In this document: piece by piece, positions 10,908-63,300 of the stretch | Layout of the letters: every line of letters begins with the position of its first letter | Numbering within the stretch: the first letter of the stretch is position 1 | DNA from: a virus | Taxonomy: Duplodnaviria > Heunggongvirae > Uroviricota > Caudoviricetes | Reading direction: 5' to 3' (one strand) | Length of the DNA: 64,000 nucleotides | Virus record (IMG/VR): IMGVR_UViG_2910649936_000002 | Location: 66,713-130,712 of that record | The notes under the pieces: model-generated | Seen by the model: only the letters and a program-made list of their open reading frames with translations | Told to the model about the DNA's origin: nothing | The model's database searches: none | Program-made: the position numbers and the translations under genes

Positions 10908-10995
10908 TCAATTCTTTACTCGGAAAATGATTTTCCGACCGCCCCATGAGGGGCACGCACTAGGCTTGACGGCTATTTATACTCGCCTAGTCGAG

Positions 10996-11343
10996 TTATG
11001 ATACTTTCCTTTTCAGTTCATCTATTTCTTTCTGCATGGTGTCCATTTGACGAATTAAAAGGTTTACCGTGCTATTTTCCAGTTTAATCGTATTTACTGT
11101 ACTTTCAAGATTATCAAGGCGTTTATCCATTCTTTCAAAATGTTCATTTGTTCTTTCCTGTACGTTGTCGATTTCATTTAAAACTCGATTTTCTAACGCT
11201 CTCATGTCTTTTCTGACTGATGTAAACTCCGCTTTCATCTCTTTTCTAACCGATGTAAACTCCGCTTTCATCTCTTCCCTGACGCCTGATATTTCCTCTT
11301 TCATTATCGTCCGAATCATCTCTAGATCCTGTTTTTCTAACAT
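10996..11343 (-). CDS. Coiled-coil protein with 11-residue repeats (EMKAEFTSVRK x2)
   Basis: 33-bp tandem repeat; SD aggagg; upstream promoter TTGACA(11460)-N17-TATGCT. Confidence 0.8.
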   Translation of the reverse strand: MLEKQDLEMIRTIMKEEISGVREEMKAEFTSVRKEMKAEFTSVRKDMRALENRVLNEIDNVQERTNEHFERMDKRLDNLESTVNTIKLENSTVNLLIRQMDTMQKEIDELKRKVS

Positions 11344-25291: not shown

Positions 25292-25700
25292 CATTATTAC
25301 TAAGATGAAAGACTCATATAATATTGTGATTGTCGGACGCTTCTTGGCAGATGAAGTATAATGCTGCTAAATCAAAATGAAAATGGGTAAAACAAGAAAG
25401 TACATATACTTTTAATGTTGATATGATTTAAATGATTGCGTTATTTGTTTCTATATGTGATATTTCCTATTTCTGTATTTTGTCAATACGTTCGGTATGA
25501 TCGTACATTCAATCTATGAGAATCGTTTCAATAAAGTATAATTATATATTAATGAACAGTTGGTAGAAATAACCAAGTAAATAATTTCACATAATTTGAT
25601 ATTCACATTGTCTGAAGTCGCAGTACTTATACGAGTTTTCATATATTGTATCAGTGGCGGTTCTGGATGTATCATTCAATTTGGCACCGTCACTGAATTT

Positions 25701-25771
25701 TGGGATATGGTGTAATGGTAACACATAAGACTTTGACTCTTATAACTCAGGTTCGAATCCTGATATCCTAG
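25701..25771 (+). tRNA. tRNA-Gln(UUG)
   Basis: Full cloverleaf; anticodon stem TAAGA/TCTTA, loop CT-TTG-AC, T-loop TTCGAAT. Confidence 0.9.
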
Positions 25772-26836
25772 TTGTCAGAATCTCTAACATGGTGCTCGCT
25801 GCCGGGCGGCGCAGAATTGGCAGACGTGTCATTCTTGTTGCGGTTCTGATAATATGTAACAATTCAGATGGACGTCACATCGGCAACAAGATTGGTTGTG
25901 AATGATTGTTACAGAGCGAATTGAAGTCGGTCTTTTCGCTATATAAAAATAGAAACAAGGGCAAATCGACAGTAGCCTCGTTTCATTAAAAACCCGTGTT
26001 AAAATTGCTCTAAAAACAACAGTGGCGATTGGGAGAAATGAAGTTCAGCGCAAAGAGCAAGCGAGACTCATATAGTTACCGAAAGCCCAGTCAGTTTATA
26101 CGTGGGAAGCTGACACTATAAGTACCACAAGGTATTAGATGTTTCTGGTGTGTACCAGAAAAGGTTTTAATGGTTGTGGGAAGTTGCCTATTTGTAAGTG
26201 TAGAAAGGTTTCTTGAACCGCTTTGGCGGTTCATGCGGAGATTCCGACTCTCCTAAAACACGTTTTCATAGTGTGGCTACGGACTATGAAGTAATTGCAG
26301 GCGTAGTATTGGTGCATGAGGGCATGGGAGACTGCTTAAATGTGTGCAATCCTATCATGGGAATGGGGCCATGCACAGCCAATAGGACAGTAAGCCGATG
26401 TATAAGTCGTGTCAAGTATATGACAACGATCATATTGAAAGCACAATATGATTTGCGGGACGCCGGGCTTATATCGCAATCCTTAAAATTTAAATCGCCA
26501 ATATTAACGCATGATAACCGGTCAATTTTATGCGAGACCACTGAGAGGAAGAATCCTTCTTACCACGAATGAGGTGGTGTGAAAACAGTAGCAATTCAGG
26601 TCGCTCCTAATGAATTTCGGACATAAATTGCGATCCGTGGATATAGTGGAAAGGCGGTAAAGGCTTATCGCATTGAGCCATAATCAATGTACGGGGCTGC
26701 CGGTTAAACAGCACCTTGCACTGGGTATAATAGTGTCATCAGGTCTTGCGGATTAAGCGATAGATGTAAAAACGACATCCGATAGTGTCAAGCATGGCAC
26801 GAAAAACATCAATGCAAGCCAGGATGACTGGCTTAT
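25772..26836 (+). ncRNA. Large structured ncRNA candidate (GOLLD/ROOL class)
   Basis: ~1.06 kb, GC-richer, without a credible ORF, densely hairpinned, and flanked by tRNA-Gln and tRNA-Tyr. Confidence 0.6.
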
Positions 26837-26926
26837 GGGAGAAAGGTCACTGTTGGTTGTGTGTCGGCAGACTGTAAATCTGTTCCCTTGTGGTAAACAT
26901 CGGAGGTTCAATTCCTCCTTCTCCCA
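26837..26926 (+). tRNA. tRNA-Tyr(GUA)
   Basis: Acceptor GGGAGAA/TTCTCCC, anticodon GCAGA-CTGTAAA-TCTGT, long variable arm; atypical D arm. Confidence 0.8.
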
Positions 26927-26986
26927 TTCCACAGTAGCTAGTACCCTATAGGCTGTCAGGTACGGCAGCGGCTACGGGAGGAACCT

Positions 26987-27058
26987 GGCTCCGTGGTCAA
27001 GCGGTTAAGACATCGCCCTTTCACGGGTGTAACGTCGGTTCAAATCCGGCTGGAGTCA
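26987..27058 (+). tRNA. tRNA-Glu(UUC), anticodon stem with two mismatches
   Basis: Typical Glu D-arm GTCAAGCGGTTAAGAC; anticodon stem TCGCC/GGGTG. Confidence 0.75.
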
Positions 27059-27270
27059 TTTTTCCACCGAGCAAGGCGGTTCAACCCACTAAGAAGCCTT
27101 GCGAAAAAACTTTTCCAGAGAGATAAGACCAAAGACCGTGAGGAGTGGTAGTCGGTGATTCTGGAATATCCCCGGAAGTATACGTTATTTCATGTGTATT
27201 GCGCCTAAAGGGCATTAAAATGGTGGTTTTATATGGGGATTAAAGGCTGATAGTTTAAATAAATTGATAA

Positions 27271-27304
27271 GAAACCCATTGGCTTTAGACAATGGGTAGT
27301 TCAC
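27271..27304 (+). mobile_element. Orphan IS200/IS605-family right end
   Basis: Hairpin cccattg-gctttaga-caatggg followed by tagttcac; no tnpA/tnpB nearby. Confidence 0.6.
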
Positions 27305-27359
27305 AACCACTAGTAGCTGGTGATGAACTGGTGTCGGGGTTTGAGTCCCTGATGTGGCG
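27305..27359 (+). pseudogene. tRNA remnant (T-arm and 3' acceptor strand)
   Basis: CGGGG-TTTGAGT-CCCTG T-arm followed by ATGTGGCG; no anticodon arm. Confidence 0.4.
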
Positions 27360-27362
27360 TTT

Positions 27363-27446
27363 GCCGTGTTCCCATAATGGTATTGGAACGGATTGCTAAT
27401 CCGTCGCCGGATATCCGGCTTATAGGTTCGAGTCCTATACACGGCG
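27363..27446 (+). tRNA. tRNA-Ser(GCU)
   Basis: Acceptor GCCGTGT/ACACGGC, ACGGA-TTGCTAA-TCCGT, long variable arm. Confidence 0.88.
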
Positions 27447-27473
27447 CTAAAATATCATCATGTTTTTAAATAT

Positions 27474-27547
27474 GGAGCTGTAGCTCAGTTGGTTGTAGCG
27501 CGCGACTGTTAATCGCGAGGTCAAAAGTTCGAGCCCTTTCAGCTCCG
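27474..27547 (+). tRNA. tRNA-Asn(GUU)
   Basis: GGAGCTG/CAGCTCC, CGCGA-CTGTTAA-TCGCG; weak T stem. Confidence 0.85.
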
Positions 27548-27596
27548 TTTACCACTGACCGATATGTGGTATATAAATGGTCGGGTTGTATAGTTT

Positions 27597-35086: not shown

Positions 35087-35172
35087 GGAGAGGTATCGAA
35101 GTGGTCATAACGAGGCGGTCTTGAAAACCGTTTGTCCGCAAGGGCGCGTGGGTTCGAATCCCACCCTCTCCG
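35087..35172 (+). tRNA. tRNA-Ser(UGA)
   Basis: Canonical cloverleaf GGAGAGG/CCTCTCC, GCGGT-CTTGAAA-ACCGT. Confidence 0.93.
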
Positions 35173-35253
35173 CTTCTTTTTTAGAAAATAAATTACAGAA
35201 AGAAGGGCTGATTTATTCATATTCAAGATAGAGAAACAAGAATTAGAGAATCT

Positions 35254-51278: not shown

Positions 51279-53156
51279 ATGGGGACAAATTTTAATGTTG
51301 ATGTTAATATACGTCCACATGGTGCAGAAAAAATTGACCGTTTAGAACAGCAAATTAATAGTTTAAAGAATAAAAATATTAATTTGAAATTTAACATTAG
51401 TGGTATAAACTCCAAGGATTTAAATTTTAATAAGCAATTTAAAAATCTTGGAGAAAGCGCAGGGAAATCATATTCCACCGCCTTGCAAAAGCAAATAAAT
51501 GCGGTTGCCAGAACACAAAGAAACGCTTTTTCTGAACCATTAAAAACATTAACAAAAGCACAACAGAATTATGATGATTGGTGGAATAAACAGCTTTCCA
51601 AAAAATCTAATGCGAATTATGGGAAAAGTCAACAGTTTATTATGTTTGATCAATACTTGAATCAAATGAAAACTGTTGAAGAAAAAGCCCAAGAAATAAA
51701 GAAGCGTGTCTCTCAATCTTTCTTGGATGTGGATACATCTTCTATTCAAAAAAATCTTAGAAAATTTTCTGGTTCTGATTCAGAATCGTATAAATCCGCA
51801 CAAGCTAGTCTTGAAAAATTATTAAGTTTACAAAAAGAATTAAAAACCGGAGTCAGCAATGGTGGTCTATCAAAAACGTTAAATGCCAATGAGTATATTG
51901 CAAAATATAATGAATATGCAAGTATACTGGAGAAATGTAAGAATCAAGTAAAAGTTTTAAATAATGAATTAGTTGGATTATCTAAACCAATTAGTAGTAT
52001 GGATGCTGTTACAGCTTCAAACAAAACTTTGACTTGGCTTAATAATAATACAAAGGCGGCAAAAGAATATGGTGAAGTTTTACGTTCACTTGCAGAAAAG
52101 CAAAAACAGGCAACTACGAGTGATCAACTTTCACAATACAATAAAGAGTTTAGACAAATTGTTTCAGAAGCGCAAGTACGTGGTTTAACAGGTAATTCAA
52201 GACTTTCTGAACTTAAACGTGCAGCCAGTCAAATTGCTGAATTTGTTGGAATTTATGGAATGTTACAAAATGTAATACTGGAAGTTCCGAGACAGATGGC
52301 GCAGAATGTACTTGATGTAGATGCTGCCATGACTAACTTGCAAATGGCAACTGGTGTAACCAATACACAAGCCCAAGAGCTAATGTCTACATATAGCAAA
52401 CTTGGAGAGCAGTTAAAGGCGACAAGTACAGATGTTGCAACTAGTGCTACAGAGTGGCTTAAGCAAGGGAAGTCGATTGAAGAATCACAAAAACTTGCTG
52501 AAGATTCAATTGTTTTATCTAAGATTGGTGATTTATCTTCTGAAGATGCAACTAAAACCATTACTGCCGCTATGAAGTCATACAACCTTGATGAATCTGA
52601 GGTTATGAATTTTGTTGATCAAATTTCTGCTATTGATATGGCATCAGCCACAGATGTAGGTGGTCTTGCTTCTGCATTTAATGAAGTGGCCGCTAACGCA
52701 AGACAGGCAGGTGTAGATACAAAACAACTTCTTTCATATGCGGCGGCAATTGGAGAAACAACACAAGAAGGTATGTCTTCTGTTGGTACATCATTGAATG
52801 CAATATTCTCAAGAATGGGAAATATTAAATTGTCTCGTTTGAAAGATTATGAGACAGGTGAGGATCTTAGTAATGTAGAAACCGTTCTTCGTGGAGTAGG
52901 AATTTCATTACGAGACTCACAGGATGAATTTAGGGATTTTGATGATGTACTTGAGGAAACAGCTAACCGTTGGACTTCGCTGAGTGGGGTACAACAAAGA
53001 GCAGTGTCACAGGCTTTCGCCGGAACGCATCACATGAATGATTTTATGGTTTTGATGGAGCAGTGGGAAAATGTAGAGAAATACATTGAAACTGCTGACA
53101 ATGCTTCTGGTCAGAGTATACAGAAATATGAAGCATATACAGATTCATTAGCAGGC
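51279..53156 (+). CDS. Tail tape measure protein, exon 1
   Basis: TP901-family core (VDAAMTNL…A..W.KQG…LSKIG…); the frame ends at the intron (…DSLAG|). Confidence 0.9.
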
Positions 53157-53731
53157 AAATTTTGCCTGATCGCATAGAAATATGCGAATAAGAACATATT
53201 TAATTGCAGGTAATACCTAAAGCTCTACACTACAATATAGGGGAAACTACTATATGACAGTTTTAAAACGTAGAGATAAAACAATGGTTGTTCATGCAGC
53301 GAAGCACCCTAACGTATCCCGTAGACCATACGGTACTTGAGCCGAGGGTGAACGTTCACAGACTATTCCCTTGTCGGGATTCAACAATATTCTATTTCAT
53401 TTCTAATTTTTTCACATATTAAAAAGAGAATATAAAAATAAGGGTGGAAATCCCGAATAGTTGAATCAATAGAAGTACGGGCGCAATCGCAAATGGCGCA
53501 GGTGAAAACCCATAAACGGAAAAGGTATGACTGCTACTCTTCTATTTTGAATGAGTGTGGTTAAGAAATAGTCGGTTCTTGTATGAAAATACGAGATGTT
53601 GTTGATTAATTATATGATGGAGAACATTAAATGAACAATATTTTTAAATGTAAATCATTATTCAAAATAGCATTTATAAAATATTAATCAACAACTGATA
53701 AACTATTGCGAAGTTTATCGAACATAATAAG
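53157..53731 (+). ncRNA. Group I intron 1 (575 nt, no endonuclease ORF)
   Basis: P aattgcaggtaa, Q catgcagcg, P7 GACTA(53361)/TAGTC(53569), P9 cttgtat-gaaa-atacgag, terminal G53731; removal restores GGC|AAA ATT GAG in frame. Confidence 0.9.
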
Positions 53732-53920
53732 AAAATTGAGGGATTCAAAAATAGCTTCCAATCTCTCTCGACTTCAGCTTTAGATTCAGATTTATTCAAG
53801 GGAGCTATAGACTCCGGCACAGGACTTCTCAACATCATAACTAAACTTACAAGTGTTGGTGATGGAATTCCTGCTTTAATAGCTGCATTTTCTGTTTTGA
53901 AATCAGCTACAGGTTCGGGT
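53732..53920 (+). CDS. Tape measure protein, exon 2 (63 codons)
   Basis: KIEGFKNSFQSLSTSALDSDLFKGAID…SATGSG; absent from the ORF track. Confidence 0.88.
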
Positions 53921-54468
53921 AAATATAAAGTCATAGTTATAAATGCCCCCTTATATAAGATTGCGTAATAATGCCACGCAATTAACATATAGGGTGTTTG
54001 CGGCAATTAATCATAAGTTGCTAATACGAACCTTGGTTATAACCTAAATTGTCGAATATCGGGGGAAGCCGTAAGCCAGAAATGGTGCCAAACGGATGAG
54101 ATAAAAGCGCATTTAATATAAATAGCGTTCCGAATGGAATAAGTGTATCTACACGAAAACGGTAGTCACCGACGCGGTATATGCTAGAATGAAAGTGTGA
54201 TTTCATAATATATCGTGCGAGAGGCTGACAAGACACAGCGTGATACAGGCATAATTGTATCATTGGCTGCAATATACAGTCCGTAACCTGGGGGAAAGCC
54301 CCTGAGAAGCGAATAGGGATATGATTAGCACTACTGCTACCCTACTTAGTACATATCACACAAACTACTGCCGACTTGCAAAAACGGAGTAGAAAATATT
54401 TTATAATACTACTATTCTCTGATATAATATGTTTATATATAGATTAAACATGTGGAGAATAAGTGAAA

Positions 54469-54612
54469 ATGCCAAATAATAAATCAAACAAAAGACAAAT
54501 TAAATCATCTACAAAAGCTCATAGTACAAAACATAGGAAAAGCACAAATTTGTACGGTAATAATGGCACTAATGTTACAAAGCCATTCAAAGGGAACAAA
54601 AAAAATAAATAG
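54469..54612 (+). CDS. Intron cargo: small basic peptide (47 aa)
   Basis: SD ggag; K/N/S-rich; upstream of the membrane gene. Confidence 0.4.
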   Translation: MPNNKSNKRQIKSSTKAHSTKHRKSTNLYGNNGTNVTKPFKGNKKNK

Positions 54613-54626
54613 TATGCAATAAGGAG

Positions 54627-55196
54627 ATGATACCAATTCATAATATAGAAGTATTAATAAATAATATACCAAGTATTTTACAATATATTATTCCTGGGTA
54701 TTGTTTGATGTTTGTATTTAAACATATTACAAATGTAAAAACAGATAATAATACAACAATTATTCTAAGTTGCGTTATTAGTTATATTACGCTTTCATTA
54801 TTATCATTATTTTATATCAGCAATAATATTTATATTACTTCTGCTATTGCTATTTTAATAAATGTATTTATTGGTTTCTGTATTGCTATGGTTGCAAAAT
54901 GCAAAATATTTAATACCTTTTTACTTAACCATTTACATACCAATACTTATCATGATATATGGAATGATGTATTGGATTATACTCATGGTTCAAATATGAA
55001 GATATATCTCAAAGGATACGATTATTATATATTAGGTCATTATAGATTTAATGAAACAAATGGTAATGAATCATGGTTCGCAGTCAGTGGATATGAAAAA
55101 ATAGATTTAAAGACTGATAAGATTTTGCAAATAGAGGATGAAACTTCTTATTTTGTTTTTAACTTGCGAGATGTGGATCATATTGAAATAATTTAG
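54627..55196 (+). CDS. Intron cargo: membrane protein (DUF6338-like)
   Basis: Three N-terminal TM segments (IPSILQYIIPGY…), soluble C domain; SD aaggag. Confidence 0.65.
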   Translation: MIPIHNIEVLINNIPSILQYIIPGYCLMFVFKHITNVKTDNNTTIILSCVISYITLSLLSLFYISNNIYITSAIAILINVFIGFCIAMVAKCKIFNTFLLNHLHTNTYHDIWNDVLDYTHGSNMKIYLKGYDYYILGHYRFNETNGNESWFAVSGYEKIDLKTDKILQIEDETSYFVFNLRDVDHIEII

Positions 55197-55466
55197 ATTA
55201 TTACAAAAAAATAATCAAAGTACTTTTTATTGGACATATATTATGCTATTATAAACACATGGTTGTTGCTGCACCTTTTATACATAGCCGGTAGACTTTT
55301 TAGGTTCTATCGGCTATTGTCATATAAGTAATCAAAATTCCTTAAATAATTTACTGAACTTTGAATTGCATGTAGATGTTCATCTCACAAATAGAAATTC
55401 TATTTCTTTTCTAAGAGTTTGTATAGATGGATCTCTCATAACACCGTCTTGCATTGTACGTATAAA

Positions 55467-55619
55467 TTAATATGTAACAACATTATATATAATAGCAAAC
55501 AAAAAGAGAATAACAATGGTTAAAACTATAGCTACAGTAAGGGCTAGACCTGAATTGTCAAATATAACATTCGCAATATAATAAACGATACAAAATATAA
55601 TTATACCAGGTAAAAGCAT
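55467..55619 (-). CDS. Intron cargo: 50-aa hydrophobic two-TM peptide
   Basis: MLLPGIIIFCIVYY…FAIIYNVVTY; SD gagggg; below the track threshold. Confidence 0.6.
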   Translation of the reverse strand: MLLPGIIIFCIVYYIANVIFDNSGLALTVAIVLTIVILFLFAIIYNVVTY

Positions 55620-55718
55620 AATAAATCCCCCTCTTTATCATAACATGTTTTATAACCGATTCAGTCTTGTTCCAAATTAAGTTTCATTCCTACCTCCACC
55701 TACTAATCAAAGAAAGGA

Positions 55719-55934
55719 TTGATTAATATAAAAGAATATATAACAAATGATATTCATATTAAATTCATACGCCAGAAAAAGGATGATTCAATCTGCTCGT
55801 TTGATACCATTGAAGTATCTATTAACGGGAAAGTTATTCCTAATCTGAAACGTTTTAAATTAGATCTTAATGTAGAGTCAGGTAATTTTTCGCAACCATA
55901 TACAATCGAACAATATCTTTCTGTACCAGACTGA
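55719..55934 (+). CDS. Intron cargo: small hypothetical protein
   Basis: SD gaaagga. Confidence 0.5.
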   Translation: MINIKEYITNDIHIKFIRQKKDDSICSFDTIEVSINGKVIPNLKRFKLDLNVESGNFSQPYTIEQYLSVPD

Positions 55935-56092
55935 TTAATCCAATATCACCATTTATTTACACAATTTTTATCATCTGAGAAATAAACATCACATGGTTTT
56001 CGTTCAGGGATGTTTGAAAATTGATTTATTACCTGGATAGCATTATTGGACAGTGAATTCAAAAACTGTTTTTTATTCATTAATAAATTTCC

Positions 56093-56226
56093 CTACCATT
56101 TATGTCCACAGTTTTTACAATGCATAGTATTCCTTACGTCACTACTAAAAACACCAAATAATATACTACCGCCGAGTTTTTTCCCAGCCGATATTTTCTT
56201 TATGTTGGTAGACCCACAGGTGGGAT
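56093..56226 (-). pseudogene. Intron cargo: C-terminal remnant of a fourth zinc-ribbon paralogue
   Basis: HPTCGSTNIKKISAGKKLGGSILFGVFSSDVRNTMHCKNCGHKW*, truncated directly below the peptidase gene. Confidence 0.75.
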
Positions 56227-56234
56227 GGATATCT

Positions 56235-56972
56235 CTATAGTATATTTAATTTCATAATTATTTTGTTAGAGATTTGGTTAGAGATGCTATTTAAGTCAGA
56301 AAAATATGAAAAATTATCAATTTCAGGATTTTTTAGTAATCCATCTAAAATTTCAATATCATGCTTACCTAATAATAATGATATAAATTCATAATCAATC
56401 AACTTTGATACATCTTCTTTGCAATACTTGTTCCAGAAATTAATCTGACTTAAATAATAAATTGAATGTAATATAATATGGTATATATCTTTATTTTTTA
56501 TAAATGATTGAATAGTCGATTTATAATCTAAGGTTTTATATGCAATATCTTCAGCTACATTCTTTTTATAAATCCAATCATTAACCTTTGTAGATAATTG
56601 AAATTTATAATTTTCATAATAATTGTTAAATCCCAAAGCTGCTTTCATTTGAACTTGTGTAGCATAATACTCAGTGTACCATTTAATATATGGTTCTCTT
56701 TGCTGTTTATTTAGTCCTGTAAGAATTGTACTGTCATGTAAAATATGTGTTAATTCATGATAAACTCCTGGTCTAGCATTTGATTTTAGTTCTGGTATGT
56801 ATGTACTGGAAAGTAAAAATGTTGGTATTCCCTTATCAAAGGTTGTTTTGAGATTTGCGCCTAGTGTATCATCTATAACAATATTGAAATCTGGAAATGT
56901 ACTAATCAGCATGAATTTTTTATATTCTTCTTTATAGCTATTTATAATATTATTTATCTTATTATACTGCAT
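56235..56972 (-). CDS. Intron cargo: HExxH metallopeptidase-like protein
   Basis: YHELTHILH…TEYYA third-ligand motif. Confidence 0.65.
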   Translation of the reverse strand: MQYNKINNIINSYKEEYKKFMLISTFPDFNIVIDDTLGANLKTTFDKGIPTFLLSSTYIPELKSNARPGVYHELTHILHDSTILTGLNKQQREPYIKWYTEYYATQVQMKAALGFNNYYENYKFQLSTKVNDWIYKKNVAEDIAYKTLDYKSTIQSFIKNKDIYHIILHSIYYLSQINFWNKYCKEDVSKLIDYEFISLLLGKHDIEILDGLLKNPEIDNFSYFSDLNSISNQISNKIIMKLNIL

Positions 56973-57021
56973 AATTTATACCCATTTCTACAAACACAAT
57001 ATTTTAAAGGATGGTGAAAGT

Positions 57022-57198
57022 TTGAAAGATATTAATAAAAATATTCAATCATGTATTGATGATTATAATAAAAAAATGACTTCTCTTGTTTATGATGATC
57101 CAGTTGGTGTTTTATCACAGCAAGAGTATGAGAAATATGAAAAAATATATCTTGAAAAACGTCGTGAGAAACTACGTTCTCATGGTTTACATGTGTGA
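57022..57198 (+). CDS. Intron cargo: small hypothetical protein (58 aa)
   Basis: SD ggtgaaag and TTG start; divergent from the peptidase gene. Confidence 0.45.
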   Translation: MKDINKNIQSCIDDYNKKMTSLVYDDPVGVLSQQEYEKYEKIYLEKRREKLRSHGLHV

Positions 57199-57305
57199 GC
57201 GTAACAATATATTTATACCCAATTAAACTAAGGTTTAATTAGCAGAGTTTCTTTAGAAAATCCAGCTTTTAAACATCAGTGACGTATTAAAATATTTTCA
57301 ACTTA

Positions 57306-58040
57306 TCATTTTAATTCATTACTATATATAGATGAGGATATTTTGTTTATCATATTATTAGATTCATAACAAAAAGCATCCGATGGTTCTGTGCTTATTA
57401 ATAAGTCTATTAGAGCACACATATCATCTTGTACATATGTAAAGGGTAAATGAAAGATAAATAAATCCTCAAAAATATTGTACTGGTTATATATAGAATA
57501 AAATCCAATATTATATACAATCCAATACATTAATAAATGAAAGTTTTGTTTTGAATTAATTCGTCTTGCATGTTCAAGCCGTAAATTAAATTGTTCGTTT
57601 TGAATTTGAATGAATTCTTTTAATGTTATAATTCCATTCTCATTATAAATAGTTGTAGATTTTGTAATGTTTTTATTAGGATTGTGGAATAGTTCTAATA
57701 ATTTTTTTATTTGAATTTGCGCAGCATGATATTCTGTATATGGATAGAGTATATTTGTTTTTTCTTGTTTATCATATATATCTGTTAGTAAAACAGTTTG
57801 ATCATAAACATGAGTAAACTCATGATATAGATTTGATATAATATACTTTTTGTTTATTTTCGGATTGTAAAATTTACTTCCTAATGCAATTTCATATATA
57901 TCGGACGTAATTTGCTTGACTTGTGCAAGATATTGCATTTTTAAACGCGGCATTGGAATTATTTCTGGCATTTTACTTTTTATATCCAAGTCGTTTATAA
58001 ATTGAGTATATATTGCGGCAATCTCATCGTTTGACAACAT
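57306..58040 (-). CDS. Intron cargo: HExxH metallopeptidase-like protein, paralogue
   Basis: YHEFTHVYD…TEYHA…QIKKLL, collinear with 56235-56972. Confidence 0.65.
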   Translation of the reverse strand: MLSNDEIAAIYTQFINDLDIKSKMPEIIPMPRLKMQYLAQVKQITSDIYEIALGSKFYNPKINKKYIISNLYHEFTHVYDQTVLLTDIYDKQEKTNILYPYTEYHAAQIQIKKLLELFHNPNKNITKSTTIYNENGIITLKEFIQIQNEQFNLRLEHARRINSKQNFHLLMYWIVYNIGFYSIYNQYNIFEDLFIFHLPFTYVQDDMCALIDLLISTEPSDAFCYESNNMINKISSSIYSNELK

Positions 58041-58077
58041 AATATTTATATCCTTTCAAGAAAGTTGGTGTTATATA

Positions 58078-58314
58078 ATGTATAATAGCATAAATAACAA
58101 AGCCGATTCAGATTCTATTTTAAACACACAAGACCCACATGTGCATGTTTTACTCAATCCTTCTGACATTAGTCTACCACTCCCACCCAAACCAAAATAT
58201 AAAAAGATATTGAGTGATCTATATTTATTAATCAATATACGAGGAACTGATAGCTTTAGCATGTGGTTGGACATTTGGAAGCAACTTTTTTATCATATAA
58301 TAAGTCATGACTAA
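58078..58314 (+). CDS. Intron cargo: small hypothetical protein
   Basis: Divergent from the peptidase gene, same arrangement as 57022-57198. Confidence 0.4.
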   Translation: MYNSINNKADSDSILNTQDPHVHVLLNPSDISLPLPPKPKYKKILSDLYLLINIRGTDSFSMWLDIWKQLFYHIISHD

Positions 58315-58336
58315 AGACTAATTATCTAACTAATCT

Positions 58337-58786
58337 CTACCACTCATATCCACAATTATTACAATGAAACTGCATTTTTCTTTTATTACCAAACAAACCA
58401 AATAATACAGCATTTGTTGCTTTTGAAGCTGTAGTAATTTTACGAATATTGGTACTTTGACAAGTTGGGCATTTAGGCTTGTTGCTTTCTTCTGCTGCCT
58501 TCTGCTGTTCTACTTGAGTTCGCAGTTGAGACATTTTTAATTCATATTCGATGATGTCTTCATCATGAAGTTTAATCATGGCATCAAAAAAATTAGGGTC
58601 TATTGCAACATCCATCCAAACCTTAAAGTCTTGATATGTGACATTTAATGTTTTTATAGGATGTCCATATTCACATTCCGTTGCCTCTTCTGGTAAAATA
58701 AATTTATACCCCCATACTGGATATGCGAATTCTTTTGGTAAATGCAATCGCTGACATTCAGCGCAATATTTTATATAATCTGGCAT
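58337..58786 (-). CDS. Intron cargo: zinc-ribbon protein
   Basis: N-terminal CxxC…CxxxH, central DAMIKLHDEDIIEY, C-terminal CPTCQSTNI…CNNCG. Confidence 0.8.
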   Translation of the reverse strand: MPDYIKYCAECQRLHLPKEFAYPVWGYKFILPEEATECEYGHPIKTLNVTYQDFKVWMDVAIDPNFFDAMIKLHDEDIIEYELKMSQLRTQVEQQKAAEESNKPKCPTCQSTNIRKITTASKATNAVLFGLFGNKRKMQFHCNNCGYEW

Positions 58787-58887
58787 TATAAATACACCCC
58801 CTTATAGTAAATGTAATATTCATTTTCAAAATTTTAATTGCCTTTGCATTTTTCACAATATTTTGATTTTAAACTAAGTGTTTATAC

Positions 58888-59073
58888 TTATTCATCAAGA
58901 TATATTTTTAATGCATTGTAACAATTTAACACTTCATTATCAGCGGCATATGATTCTGAGCATTTTTGAATTTTATCTGTGTAAATAAACGTTGTAAGCA
59001 AAATCAAAAACACAAATACGATAAAAGAGCTAATAACTTTATATTGCTTATCATATATCAAATTTTTGAACAT
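58888..59073 (-). CDS. Intron cargo: small membrane protein
   Basis: One TM segment; SD gaaagtgag. Confidence 0.5.
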   Translation of the reverse strand: MFKNLIYDKQYKVISSFIVFVFLILLTTFIYTDKIQKCSESYAADNEVLNCYNALKIYLDE

Positions 59074-59121
59074 GGTTAATGCTCACTTTCTTAATGATTT
59101 ATCGCTATTTAATAAGACTGT

Positions 59122-59592
59122 TTAAAAATCACTTTTACAATTATTACAATGCCACTGCTTTCCAATTTTCTTACTTAAAATACCAAAGCCTATAATGGAG
59201 GCTGCTCTGTTTGTAGCAGAAATTTTCTTGATATTTGTAGAATTGCAATACGGACATTTGGGAAGATTACTTGCCTGTGGTACATATTTAGCTTGCTCTT
59301 CAGTTCCATAACACCCAGCACGTTTCGCATCTTCTCTCCATTGTGCAATACGACTTTTATACTCTATAATATTTTCCTTTTGGAGTTTTATCATAGCTTC
59401 TATAAACTCTCTATCTTCTGATACACGTCTAATCAAAAACATTTCCTCTGCGGTAATGGTTGTATGTATTAACGGCGATCCGCACTTAAAACAGAAATTA
59501 GATTTATCAGTGTTATCTTTGTCTGGATCATATAATAATCTAACATTACAATCGCGGTTAGAACAAATTGTTACATGACTATTAAATGCCAT
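59122..59592 (-). CDS. Intron cargo: zinc-ribbon protein
   Basis: CFKCG, EAMIKLQKENIIEY, CPYCNSTNIKKI…CNNC; SD aggagg. Confidence 0.8.
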   Translation of the reverse strand: MAFNSHVTICSNRDCNVRLLYDPDKDNTDKSNFCFKCGSPLIHTTITAEEMFLIRRVSEDREFIEAMIKLQKENIIEYKSRIAQWREDAKRAGCYGTEEQAKYVPQASNLPKCPYCNSTNIKKISATNRAASIIGFGILSKKIGKQWHCNNCKSDF

Positions 59593-59743
59593 TTAATCAA
59601 TCCTCCTTAATATATTGCAAGTATATTATAACATGGATATTTTTAAAAACAAACGGTTTTTAACTATGACAAAGGCAACAACAATGAGAACCTATATAAT
59701 AATAGAACCTCATTATCATCGCCTTTGTCAATTGATTCAGTAT

Positions 59744-60229
59744 TTATTTTGGTTGCATTTTATATCCACAGTTATTGCATACTAACTCTACTTTATTCGT
59801 TGCAAAGCCTGTGAGCAATCTCCATTTCTTTCTCAAAGGAGTAAATTCAGTGCAACCACATTTTGGACATTTAGTTTTGCGCTCTTCTTGTTTAATGGAT
59901 TCCAACTCCTTTGCTTTTACACGAAGTTCGGCCATCTTCGTTTCGTAAGCAATGATGTCTTCATCATGAAGTTTAATCATGGCATCAAGAAACTGTCGAT
60001 TATAATTTGAAGCTGTTCTGATAGCTATAAAATCATCATGCGTAAAATTCAAATCTACAATATCTTGCTGACAATATGGACATTTTGATAATCCATGTCC
60101 CCATCCGCCAATATATCCTCTGATATATTGCATGTTCTTTGGATCTCCATTTCCTTTTGGCTCATTATTATCATAACAGTTTTGGCAAAAATATATTGTT
60201 AATTCTTCTCCATTATACATCTTTATCAC
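59744..60229 (-). CDS. Intron cargo: zinc-ribbon protein
   Basis: CQNC…CPYC, DAMIKLHDEDII.Y, CPKCG…CNNCG. Confidence 0.8.
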   Translation of the reverse strand: MIKMYNGEELTIYFCQNCYDNNEPKGNGDPKNMQYIRGYIGGWGHGLSKCPYCQQDIVDLNFTHDDFIAIRTASNYNRQFLDAMIKLHDEDIIAYETKMAELRVKAKELESIKQEERKTKCPKCGCTEFTPLRKKWRLLTGFATNKVELVCNNCGYKMQPK

Positions 60230-60308
60230 CTATTCGAATCAATATTTTATTTTTAATTATCTTACTTAATCCATATAAAATATATGTGATATTTGCAAGA
60301 TATTACAT

Positions 60309-60337
60309 ATTATACCAATTGCAAAAGTGATTTTCAA
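60309..60337 (-). promoter_or_regulatory. Antisense promoter TTGAAA-N17-TATAAT (extended -10 TG) straddling the 3' splice site
   Basis: -35 at 60332-37 (in exon 3), -10 at 60309-14 (in the intron). Confidence 0.75.
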
Positions 60338-63300
60338 CTATGACAAACACAATGGCTTTAGTACGATATTCGAAACCTTTAAAAAGGGATCCTTATCTGA
60401 TGAATGGACGAAGGCTTGGCAAAAAGTCGGAACTATGACTAAGCCTGCATCTTGGAAAGCTTGGGCTGAATCAATGGAATATAGTGATAAAGCATTACTT
60501 AAATTTTTAAATGATGTAGACTTAGGCAAAAAAGATATTACTGATATGGGTGCTGTTATCGAATCGTCCGGTAAATCCACTTCCAAATTTGGAAATACGT
60601 TAAAAAGCTTTGGAAAAAGCATTGGAGCCAATCTTTTAAATTTAGGGACAGATTTGGCCATAGGTCTTGCTATAACAGGTATTGTAAAAGCAATTGATAG
60701 TGCTTACGAAAGCTATGATGAGGCATTAGAAAAGTTCCAAAATTCACAATCCAATTACGAATCTGCTTCTGCTGAAGTAGAAAATTTAAAATCTCAACTG
60801 TCAGACATAGATTCTCAAATTGCTACCATTAACAGTCAGCCTTTAACTATTACATCTCAAGCAGAATTAGATAATCTACAGGCTCAAAAGGCAGAATTAG
60901 AACAAATGCTTACATTGCAAGAGAATATCGCTACTGCCGCAAAAAAGCAAGCCGCTGCTGATGCATATAATCTTTCACAAAAGACATCTTCTTTATCCAC
61001 ACTTTACAAAACAAAGAATTCTAGTGAAGCAGAAGGACTTTTAGTGGATCTTATGGATTGGTATGGAAGTGATGCGACATCTGCTGTAATTGCAAGAGGT
61101 ATTATGGGCGTTGCTTCCCCCGCAGCCAGGATTCCAGGTGGACTAAATCAAACTGCAAAAGCGTTTAATTCATTTAGCGACACAGATATAATTAGACATG
61201 ATACTGAAGAATTAGTAACATTAAAAGAACGAAGAGAAAAAATTTTAAATTCTATTACATCAACTTCTTTAGATGATATTGGTGAAATTGATAGTGCTGA
61301 TAAATTAGCTAATGGGTTAGAGAACTTATTCATGTCTCCCAATACTAAGGATGCATTATTAAAAAGTGTAGATAATGACATAGCTTTGATTGAATCTGAA
61401 GTTGCTGAGAAGCAGGCTTTATTATCATCACAAATTGAAGCAATGACCGATGAAAATGGAAATGCCATTAGTCCATCATACCAGAGTACAGTAGATGAAC
61501 TGCGAGATGCTTTAAATGAACTTGAACACTATAATACACTTGGTATGTCTGAAGCAGAAAAAACAGTCAATTCCATTGACAAATATTTTGGAAAATCTTC
61601 TGCTTCAACTTTAAAAAATTATTTTCAAGAATTAGCGAACGCCGGCGAATTAACTGAAGATATTTTCAAAACACTTGGTTTATCTGCCAAAGATATAGGC
61701 GTAGAAAACTTACAAGATGTCGTTAGATATTTCAATGACATGGCAACGGCCGCTACCACCGCTGCTGATGCAGTTGAGAGTGTGGATGGCAGTTTTGAAG
61801 GTGTTCAGGCAGCTTTTGAATCTGAAAATGCTGGTTCACAGTGGGATACTATGTCTGAATATCTTGCGCAGGCGAAAGAACTATATGATCAAGGATTAGT
61901 AGGAACCGATGAATTTCAATCTACAGCAAAATTCTTCGCTCCTGGTAAAATTAATGAGGACGACTATAAATACGATTCAGATGCGTATGTTGCTGCCTGG
62001 CAATCAGCATATGAAACTGTATCACGTTGGTTTGATGCTGAAAACCCTCTACAAAGCATGTGGAATTTCTCTACAGATTTACGTGATTGGGGATTAGCTG
62101 AAATTAATTATAACGATGATGGAAGCCTTGCAGAAATCATTCCTACATTCAAAACTACCGCTGAAGCCGCTGATGCATTAGGTGTTAATGTAAATGCTGT
62201 AGATACTGCTTTGCATAAACTTGAAGATTATGGATTTGAATTTGACGATATAATGTTTAGTGGTGACGGATTAAGTGAAATAGAATCTACCCTGAACAAT
62301 ATGAAGGCATTATATGATTCTATGGATGAAGGTGCTACTAAGCAAAAACTTGGTGATACAATTGCTGGATGGGATGAAGAGTATGCAAAATATCAGGAAG
62401 ATTTATCTTTACTCACCGAAGACCAAATTGTTAAAATCAAATTCGAATATGATTTGGCTACAATACAGCAACAGATAGATGAATTGGATTTAGCTTGGCA
62501 ATCTGGTGATAGATCTTCTGAAACTGGTGCTTCTAGGATAGCTGAAAAAATGAAGTATCGTGAAACTAGAGAAGAACAAACTGGATATACAGAAGATAGT
62601 GATGACGATTACGCATCTACGTATGATAAAATTTCTCAGCTTTCCGCAAAATTTAATGATGACCTATCCGACTCTCAACGTGAGTCAATCCAAAATCAAA
62701 TTTCATCTTTGCTTGATCTGCAAAATGCATTTCAAGATACATTTGCGAATGGTGAAGTTACCAACTGGGATGATTTCTTGGGAACAGAAGAATTCAAAAC
62801 GGCCGCTAGTTCTATAATGGAAGAAACTGGGATGACTAAAGAACAGTTATCCGAACTTCTTGGAGTGGATTCCGAAACTTTAGATTTACAAGTCTCATTA
62901 TCCAAAGAAGATTTAGATGCGCAGCTTGCTAATCTTACAGAAGGTGAAACTATTCATTTTTCTGCTGATGTTGATGGAGTTGCCACCGAAATTAACGCTA
63001 TAAAAGATGAAAATGGAAATATTACCTATACTGCTATTGTAGATGGGGTTGAACAAGAACTTGCTCCTGTATTGAATGAAGATGGAACAGTAAATTTTGT
63101 TCTAGGGGATTCTCCATCAAGCGTTCCTAATGCTGAGGGTAAAGCAGATTATGATATGGGAGAGCATCCTAGTAGTGCACCAAATATAGGAGGCATTGCA
63201 AACTATAGTGGTATTTTCCCAACATCAGCACCAACATTATTCGGAACCATTCAATATACAATTCAAACAGTTGGAAATACAATTTCTAATCTATTTAGCG

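Follow-up and report, generated by a model that had tools for sequence, protein, structure and literature searches.

A fossil of a predicted 3' splice junction traces a recombination event in a putative group-I-type intron of a prophage tape measure gene

In this study, we analysed a 64,000-nt stretch of DNA (positions 66,713 to 130,712 of the Caudoviricetes record IMGVR_UViG_2910649936_000002, referred to as the window), which belongs to a prophage within a 3.6-Mb genome. Its tape measure protein (TMP) gene is split by a 6.4-kb insertion at 53921-60329, which we read as a group-I-type intron, and three zinc-ribbon genes, termed cassettes 1 to 3, lie in tandem on the opposite strand of the insertion, with cassette 1 next to the last TMP exon. 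By sequence comparison, the segment between cassettes 1 and 2 (59655-59676) genuinely preserves a former terminal junction as a fossil, consisting of an old 3' splice site followed by the first codons of an exon 3. This fossil is the trace of one recombination event and not of an integron-like capture machine, which had been proposed in a first-pass annotation of the window. The array probably arose by the stacking of terminal modules of different intron alleles through ordinary recombination between phages.

The identity of the TMP gene is confirmed by profile searches, in which PF10145 and the PHROG TMP families were matched. The gene consists of three pieces: exon 1 (to ~53155), a short exon 2, whose product reads IEGFKNSF..SATGSG, and exon 3 (from 60330), whose product begins with IFNYDKHN.. 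and which is not preceded by a ribosome-binding site of its own. While this anatomy can be read directly from the window, we infer that the second interruption is removed by splicing to give the predicted product ..SATGSG/IFNYDK... This agrees with the logic of the related locus L001, in which exons 1 and 2 are continuous (..AQGK/IEGFKNSF..), and yet the second interruption is common to L001 and the window.

Several observations argue for a group I character of this second interruption. A 20-mer from its conserved 5' part was found in 26 IMG/VR stretches, always just behind the same TMP position (..G-x-G-K/N/L) in otherwise quite different TMPs. The core structure, predicted with RNAalifold, contains 82 pairs, 28 of which show compensatory changes. 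By eye only, R- and S-like elements and a candidate P7 helix (GGCUG/CAGUC) can be made out in it. P1, with the wobble U.G pair at the 5' splice site, is formed by GGGU/GCCC in the window and covaries among the relatives (AGGGU/GCCCU and GGGGU/GCCCC, with an isosteric C.A pair in L006 and L029). At the 3' end, exon 3 is preceded by a G at 9 of 11 tabulated junctions; the other two, L014 and L026, have a C at this position, but a junction one base later, after a G, also fits. The internal guide sequence within the core pairs with the working exon-3 start (60330-60344) at 13 of 15 positions, forming an extended P10. Guide and exon have changed together in L001 (guide GUCGUAGUU with exon AACUACGAU), and a compensatory P10 change is also seen in L008, where the guide reads ACUAUCGUAGUU and is matched by its exon partner. 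Because the motif that the first-pass annotation had assigned to the 3' splice site and exon-3 region pairs with the guide, and because the two co-vary in L001 and L008, this assignment holds and can be refined: the motif is the predicted P10 target, the first ~15 nt of exon 3. The long P10 would then be the way in which the ribozyme core finds a 3' splice site 6 kb away. Transposon-like inverted repeats at the ends of the 6.4-kb insert were also considered and rejected, as the complementarity of the ends is that of the guide/P10 pairing and covaries as RNA.

The window contains a further interruption of the TMP gene, a first, short intron between exons 1 and 2 (53156-53734), which is absent from L001. 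The 5' 205 nt of this intron share 79.7% identity with a 176-kb human-gut phage record (MT835469.1), and a group-I R-like element (GTTCACAGACTA) can be seen in it by eye.

According to the first-pass annotation, a relic copy of the exon-3 motif lies before each of the three cassettes. This is correct for one of them. The one at 60330 is no relic but the working start of exon 3. The copy before cassette 2 (59655-59673) has two mismatches in 19 positions and is the sole other match to this 19-mer at three or fewer mismatches in the 64 kb, compared with 0.10 expected. On a matrix built from the junctions of the relatives only, it obtains 27.8 bits, which is the top score in the window and was attained by none of the Markov shuffles, versus 14.4 bits for the true junction; the junctions of the relatives match the window at the fossil rather than at its true junction. 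Its segment TTTTTAACTATGACAAAG is an exact 18-mer of the real exon-3 start in L131. The similarity also extends upstream into the promoter and leader of cassette 2, with 76% identity over 67 nt (59609-59674) to the terminal junctions of L001, L002 and L125, and the exon homology stops near 59676, after seven codons (VFNYDK.). By comparison, the third copy, at ~58866, is a chance-level match: it has four mismatches in 16 positions and scores -2.1 bits, 135 window positions are as good, and ~6.9 such matches would be expected in 6.4 kb. Its pairing with the guide covers 10 of 15 positions, which is equalled or bettered by 36 other G-preceded sites of the intron, and it has no homology to the known junctions, including that of the nearest relative of cassette 3.

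One might speculate that the fossil still functions as an alternative 3' splice site, the use of which would yield a truncated TMP with a new tail of 50-55 residues, tuned by a hairpin that overlaps the fossil. In line with this, positions 59656-59670 pair with the guide at 14 of 15 positions as compared with 13 of 15 for the real site, these two are the only G-preceded sites in the intron that pair at 13 of 15 or better, and the plus-strand hairpin covers part of the fossil. However, the fossil lacks conservation, with no counterpart in any of the 14 other related loci tested, the frame downstream of it runs antisense to cassette 1 and has no relatives, and the hairpin is stronger in the minus-strand RNA. 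We consider this the least probable of the readings discussed here. The hairpin has a 29-bp stem and folds with -41 kcal/mol (z -8.7) as minus-strand RNA and with -26.4 kcal/mol (z -6.05) as plus-strand RNA. The two arms differ at seven positions, six of them transitions by our count, and the minus-strand fold pairs nearly all stem positions, which fits G.U pairs at these sites. The appearance of the hairpin is that of a terminator or stabiliser of the cassette-1 mRNA that has been under selection, and it could have originated as a fold-back repair product at the joint or as an older hairpin sharing microhomology with exon 3.

The three cassettes are intact open reading frames (ORFs) on the minus strand and, as described in the first-pass annotation, paralogous: they are 32-38% identical overall and share an N-terminal zinc-binding part, a conserved helix (AMIKL..DII.Y) and a C-terminal CPxC...CxxC ribbon, with AMIKL..E.II.Y and CPxC...CNNC invariant among the three. 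Their N-terminal parts had been called unrelated. Identities of 11-21% confirm how far apart they are, but because the first CxxC is conserved across the family, they appear to be very divergent rather than unrelated. For cassette 1, the likely start is the ATG at 60220 behind GGTGA and not the GTG at 60229. A fourth cassette has decayed to its C-terminal ribbon (56093-56245); it is left as a stop-to-stop frame (..IHPTCGSTNIKKIS..HCKNCGHKW) that lacks a start codon and has lost the first Cys, and the DNA repeats D2 and D3 connect it with cassettes 1-3. A fusion of an HExxH protein with a ribbon was considered as the source of this remnant and rejected, as long ribbon proteins have other N-terminal parts. 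Two HExxH paralogues are also encoded in the intron (56235-56972 and 57306-58040, minus strand), with 39% identity in the region of the motif. The ribbon remnant directly follows the 56235-56972 gene, and HExxH genes are likewise paired with ribbon remnants in L130, L128 and L002.

Comparison with related introns places the ribbon gene at a fixed position. All relatives covered from the core to exon 3 (L001, L002, L008, L014, L018, L019, L024, L026, L027, L030, L125, L126, L128, L130 and L131) have an antisense ribbon gene directly at exon 3, and in L026, with an intron of ~1 kb, it is the sole gene. Because the ribbon always adjoins exon 3, even in this minimal intron, we conclude that the terminal antisense zinc-ribbon gene is the signature gene of the intron family and not random or passive cargo. 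A search with cassette 2 added 80 further gut-phage loci, in most of which the ribbon family adjoins a TMP 3' part, the ribbon-bearing gene diverging from a TMP-like ORF of >1000 aa. A literature search revealed no published description of an intron with this antisense-ribbon layout. The cargo between core and terminal gene varies widely and includes HTH regulators, HExxH proteins, an ATPase and a GmrSD_N/Peptidase_S24 protein. In agreement with what the first-pass annotation had suggested checking, number and order of the cassettes vary as well: the number of intact ribbon genes in an intron ranges from one to three, truncated copies occur internally as well, and more than one ribbon copy is present in L002, L019, L126, L128 and L130.

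Some of these loci show further features. In L039 (3952-7322), the one of the 80 loci that was inspected closely, the TMP is split at the equivalent site (..GIFKFIKNFD) by a 3.4-kb insert containing sense-strand genes and, at its end, an antisense ribbon gene. In the IMG/VR loci L033-L112, the C-terminal ribbon module (CPYC.STN.KKIS..FGI.S.K..KQWHCNNCKSDF) is found on N-terminal parts that differ greatly, some of them all-helical or transmembrane, and is nearly always divergent from a TMP 3' part; the nhmmer core profile detects no intron core within the 4-kb flanks of these loci. Tandem arrays of three and two ribbon-family genes are present in L116 (520-2055) and L123 (809-1941), respectively, which are bacterial genomes of the same family. 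A large cargo protein of L129 (~-2171..-1776 relative to the exon 3 match) runs in frame into the ribbon (..IKMEDNQPRCPKCGSTSI..), and in L002 the counterparts of the two fused parts are kept apart by a stop or frame change. A 392-aa intron ORF of L002 (851-2026 relative to the core) has a C-terminus (..RDKNAAINILNEGL..) that is IS605-type TnpB-like by eye only. Beside its terminal ribbon, L131 (7504-13237) carries defence-like cargo, namely a 763-aa protein, a 493-aa GmrSD_N/Peptidase_S24 protein and a DUF3800 protein.

The integron-like reading of the first-pass annotation holds that the intron 3' boundary is a dedicated, recurrent capture site at which each cassette brings a new 3' splice region and leaves the old one behind. 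One true relic does lie exactly at the place predicted by it, the nearest relative of each cassette is terminal in another intron (L031 for cassette 1, L001 for cassette 2 and L131 for cassette 3), and the deeper ribbon copies are decayed. On the other hand, the third motif is at chance level, and the 14 other related loci tested, several of which have additional ribbon copies, yielded no internal copy of their own exon-3 start at five or fewer mismatches in 22 positions; a BLAST re-search of L001, L002, L125, L126, L128 and L130 likewise found no internal copy of the junction region. The notion that every cassette carries the motif is contradicted by these results, and the two intact cassettes of L019 are separated by just 4 nt, which contain no junction. 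What does hold of the proposal is that, in the window, the addition of a new terminal module left one former junction in place. A comparison with integrons leads to the same conclusion. Both systems have tandem, variable arrays of short genes at a fixed boundary, with newer units closer to it. However, no recombinase family, including the IntI tyrosine recombinases, was matched by the eight larger intron ORFs when these were scanned against Pfam and PHROGs, and six of them also against NCBIfam. An attI/attC-type palindrome behind every cassette was not found, as a long hairpin is present behind cassette 1 and nothing comparable after cassettes 2 or 3. In addition, the array reads away from the boundary, and whereas integron cassettes are promoterless and served by a common promoter, promoter-like sites precede at least cassettes 1 and 2 here. 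Because there is no recombinase match and no repeated att-like site, and because the cassettes have their own promoter-like sites, the analogy fails in each of its testable defining features, and we regard integron-like capture as very improbable.

We favour the stacking of terminal modules from different intron alleles by ordinary recombination, because the nearest relatives of the cassettes are terminal elsewhere, deeper copies have decayed and one old junction survives. In this intron family, an opposite-strand ribbon gene lies directly at exon 3, with its predicted promoter at the 3' splice site. Three such terminal modules of different alleles would have been stacked in the prophage, and a fourth, now decayed, lies further inside the intron. 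An illegitimate join ~21 nt into a former exon 3 would have been the mechanism of at least one of these events; it would have left the old junction at 59609-59676 (cassette-2 promoter, old 3' splice site and seven exon codons) and brought in a new junction together with cassette 1. Homologous exchange and gene conversion would have followed in the central-helix DNA, where the 37-bp core described below is located, and in the ribbon modules, shuffling the N- and C-terminal parts. The relationships of the cassettes agree with different origins: cassette 1 shares 43% identity with the terminal gene of L031 and L032, cassette 2 has an N-terminal type (MAF..) common to the terminal genes of L001, L002 and L125, and the nearest relative of cassette 3, P0002 (67% identity), is the terminal gene adjoining exon 3 in L131-L136.

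A local origin would be another way to obtain this arrangement, if a terminal unit consisting of gene, promoter, 3' splice site and ~21 nt of exon 3 had been copied in place, had diverged and had been partly overwritten by other alleles. The exon-3-start direct repeats (D12) flank a 652-nt unit in the topology expected from such a tandem duplication, and a gene-conversion tract shows that the paralogues interact. Yet the identity between cassettes 1 and 2 amounts to only 12% in the N-terminal, 45% in the middle and 25% in the C-terminal part, the spacing of their promoter regions is not the same, and the fossil with its promoter region is closer to the junctions of L001, L128 and L131 than to the window's own, which makes local duplication improbable in our opinion. 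A wider reading would extend the stacking of modules to a general role of the intron 3' end as a recurrent docking point, at which whole terminal modules, defined as ribbon gene, promoter, 3' splice site and P10 target, are exchanged or stacked between phages. The intron would then be a splice-protected accessory or defence island in an essential tail gene, and left-over junctions would be possible decoy or alternative splice sites that are checked by antisense-strand hairpins. We offer this as a tentative idea and consider it rather unlikely.

The domain shuffling that is part of the stacking account can be seen in the window and among the relatives. As stated in the first-pass annotation, cassettes 1 and 3 share an identical 37-bp segment (59952-59988 = 58551-58587); the longest identical run in shuffled sequences had a mean of 9.6 and a maximum of 13. 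Because every synonymous site is identical over 12 codons, while relatives with the same residues use other codons, the segment points to gene conversion between the window's own paralogues. A discordance of N- and C-terminal parts, for which the annotation had proposed a test, is strong among the ribbon genes of the relatives: L019 and L027 share 89% identity in the N-terminal and 36% in the C-terminal part, whereas the respective values are 16% and 100% for L126 and L001 and 22% and 100% for L008 and L031. Several internal ribbon remnants in the relatives start at or just past the central helix. These values show that N- and C-terminal modules are shuffled. The annotation had placed the exchange in the 37-bp core itself; N- and C-terminal parts do recombine, and the signs in the core are those of gene conversion.

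A number of points weigh against our interpretation. The splicing of the 53921-60329 intron is a prediction, and Rfam, including RF00028, gave no intron family over 52800-60800, either at the gathering score or at E values up to 10. The RF00028 group I model misses many phage subgroups. With a single junction fossil, the history of cassettes 2 and 3 and of the remnant is deduced from their position and decay. No strain-level relative with a pre-stacking state was found in INPHARED, in 201 genomes or in exon-3 scans of metagenomes and genomes. Searches of INPHARED phages (near, distant and protein searches) gave only the 205-nt match to the first intron and a 47-nt match in a ribbon, and a family-level search of the 201 genomes, which include the window's own, gave only short matches to ribbon 3' ends and no close prophage relative. 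Because the relatives found in the exon-3 scans are only 42-50% identical, the pre-stacking state is unobservable in them. Moreover, a simple join does not explain why the hairpin straddles the end of the fossil, and no family or fold match gives a function for the cassette proteins.

With regard to this function, the cassettes matched no family above cut-off in Pfam, PHROGs, NCBIfam or PADLOC, and searches against PDB profiles and with Foldseek on PDB and BFVD returned only generic zinc ribbons or unannotated family members and no nuclease fold; for cassette 3, an AF2 model with a mean pLDDT of 81 was obtained. No family match to LAGLIDADG, GIY-YIG, HNH, His-Cys, PD-(D/E)xK or similar catalytic motifs was obtained for the cassettes. 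The residues invariant across 16 members of the family are Cys, Ala, Met, Leu, Ile, Pro and Thr, and since no His, Asp or Glu is among them, it appears unlikely that the ribbon proteins are nucleases. With low confidence, we speculate that they might be prophage-expressed, non-enzymatic binding proteins acting in phage-phage or phage-host conflict. The family, with its hypervariable N-terminus and conserved C-terminal ribbon, is without annotation and would be a good candidate for a conflict-related function. Independent expression is suggested by the predicted promoters listed in Table 1. The same bases serve as exon-3 P10 target on the plus strand and as -35 hexamer of cassette 1 on the minus strand; by eye, the terminal genes of the relatives also have their -10 in the last intron bases, and several have their -35 in exon 3.

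Group I introns of phages are usually viewed as small selfish elements with a homing endonuclease. The intron described here would instead be a platform for kilobases of independently expressed genes that reside within an essential gene and are excised from its transcript, and the fossil junction provides direct sequence evidence of how such a platform grows. The long P10 pairing may also generate competing splice sites, as illustrated by the fossil. Three known systems invite comparison. The group I introns TMP-IVS1/2/3 are located in TMP genes of prophages of the Bacillus cereus group (Tourasse and Kolsto 2008, PMC2504315). As in the window, a self-splicing-type intron lies in frame in a prophage TMP gene, its site is defined by P1 and P10, and related introns occupy the same site in different phages. 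However, the Bacillus introns are small and contain a homing endonuclease gene, its remnant or nothing, whereas in the window 6 kb of genes on the opposite strand, with promoters of their own, come after the core, and the constant passenger of the family is a zinc-ribbon gene without nuclease family match and without conserved His, Asp or Glu. In IStrons, a group I ribozyme is fused to IS200/IS605 cargo (PMC13521648), and these elements resemble our intron in that a ribozyme core at the 5' end is followed by kilobases of cargo before a distant 3' splice site. In contrast, the cargo of the window is no transposon, no TnpA or TnpB is present among the window ORFs scanned, and the family inserts at one conserved TMP codon position and not at IS target sites. 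Finally, phage morons and accessory islands in late operons likewise place opposite-strand genes, equipped with a promoter and a hairpin of their own, within a prophage structural operon, and the relatives of our intron carry defence-like cargo, such as the GmrSD_N protein in L131. Unlike these, the island of the window lies inside a coding sequence, so that the host gene would be intact only through RNA splicing.

Table 1. Positions of intron elements, junctions and zinc-ribbon genes in the window
Feature	Position	Strand	Remark
TMP exon 2 end (GGGU), 5' strand of P1	53917..53920	+	predicted 5' splice site after 53920; U.G pair with GCCC at 53945-53948
Intron internal guide sequence AAAGTCATAGTTATAAAT	53927..53944	+	pairs with exon-3 start as extended P10
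Conserved ribozyme core of the intron	53929..54393	+	nhmmer E 1e-116 against profile of relatives' cores
Decayed fourth ribbon cassette, C-terminal ribbon only	56093..56245	-	directly behind HExxH gene
Cassette 3, zinc-ribbon protein, 149 aa	58337..58786	-	intact ORF
37-bp identical segment, copy in cassette 3 (codons of DAMIKLHDEDII)	58551..58587
Third motif copy of the first-pass annotation (~58866)	58862..58884	+	chance-level match
61-codon hydrophobic ORF between cassettes 2 and 3, of uncertain reality	58888..59073	-	ORF list only; no family match
Cassette 2, zinc-ribbon protein, 156 aa	59122..59592	-	intact ORF behind AAGGAGG
Cassette-2 extended -10 TGTTATAAT	59625..59633	-	weak -35 TTGTTT at 59647-59652; read from sequence
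Fossil 3' splice site and first 7 codons of an exon 3 (G/GTTTTTAACTATGACAAAG, VFNYDK..)	59655..59676	+
29-bp-stem hairpin behind cassette 1, overlapping fossil end	59667..59730	-
Cassette 1, current terminal zinc-ribbon gene, 158 aa	59744..60220	-	intact ORF
37-bp identical segment, copy in cassette 1	59952..59988
Cassette-1 promoter, TTGAAA-17-TATAAT with TG	60309..60337	-	11/12 sigma-70 consensus match; -35 inside exon 3
Working exon-3 start and P10 target	60330..60344	+	predicted 3' splice site after G60329

Elsewhere in the prophage, phage tRNA genes are clustered at 25700-27548 and 35087-35173 of the window. For one of the tRNAs (26986-27059), ARAGORN gave a two-base anticodon (tc) flagged as undetermined. 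A Pistol ribozyme match is located at 10934-10996 on the minus strand, with 66.3 bits compared with a gathering score of 34.5.

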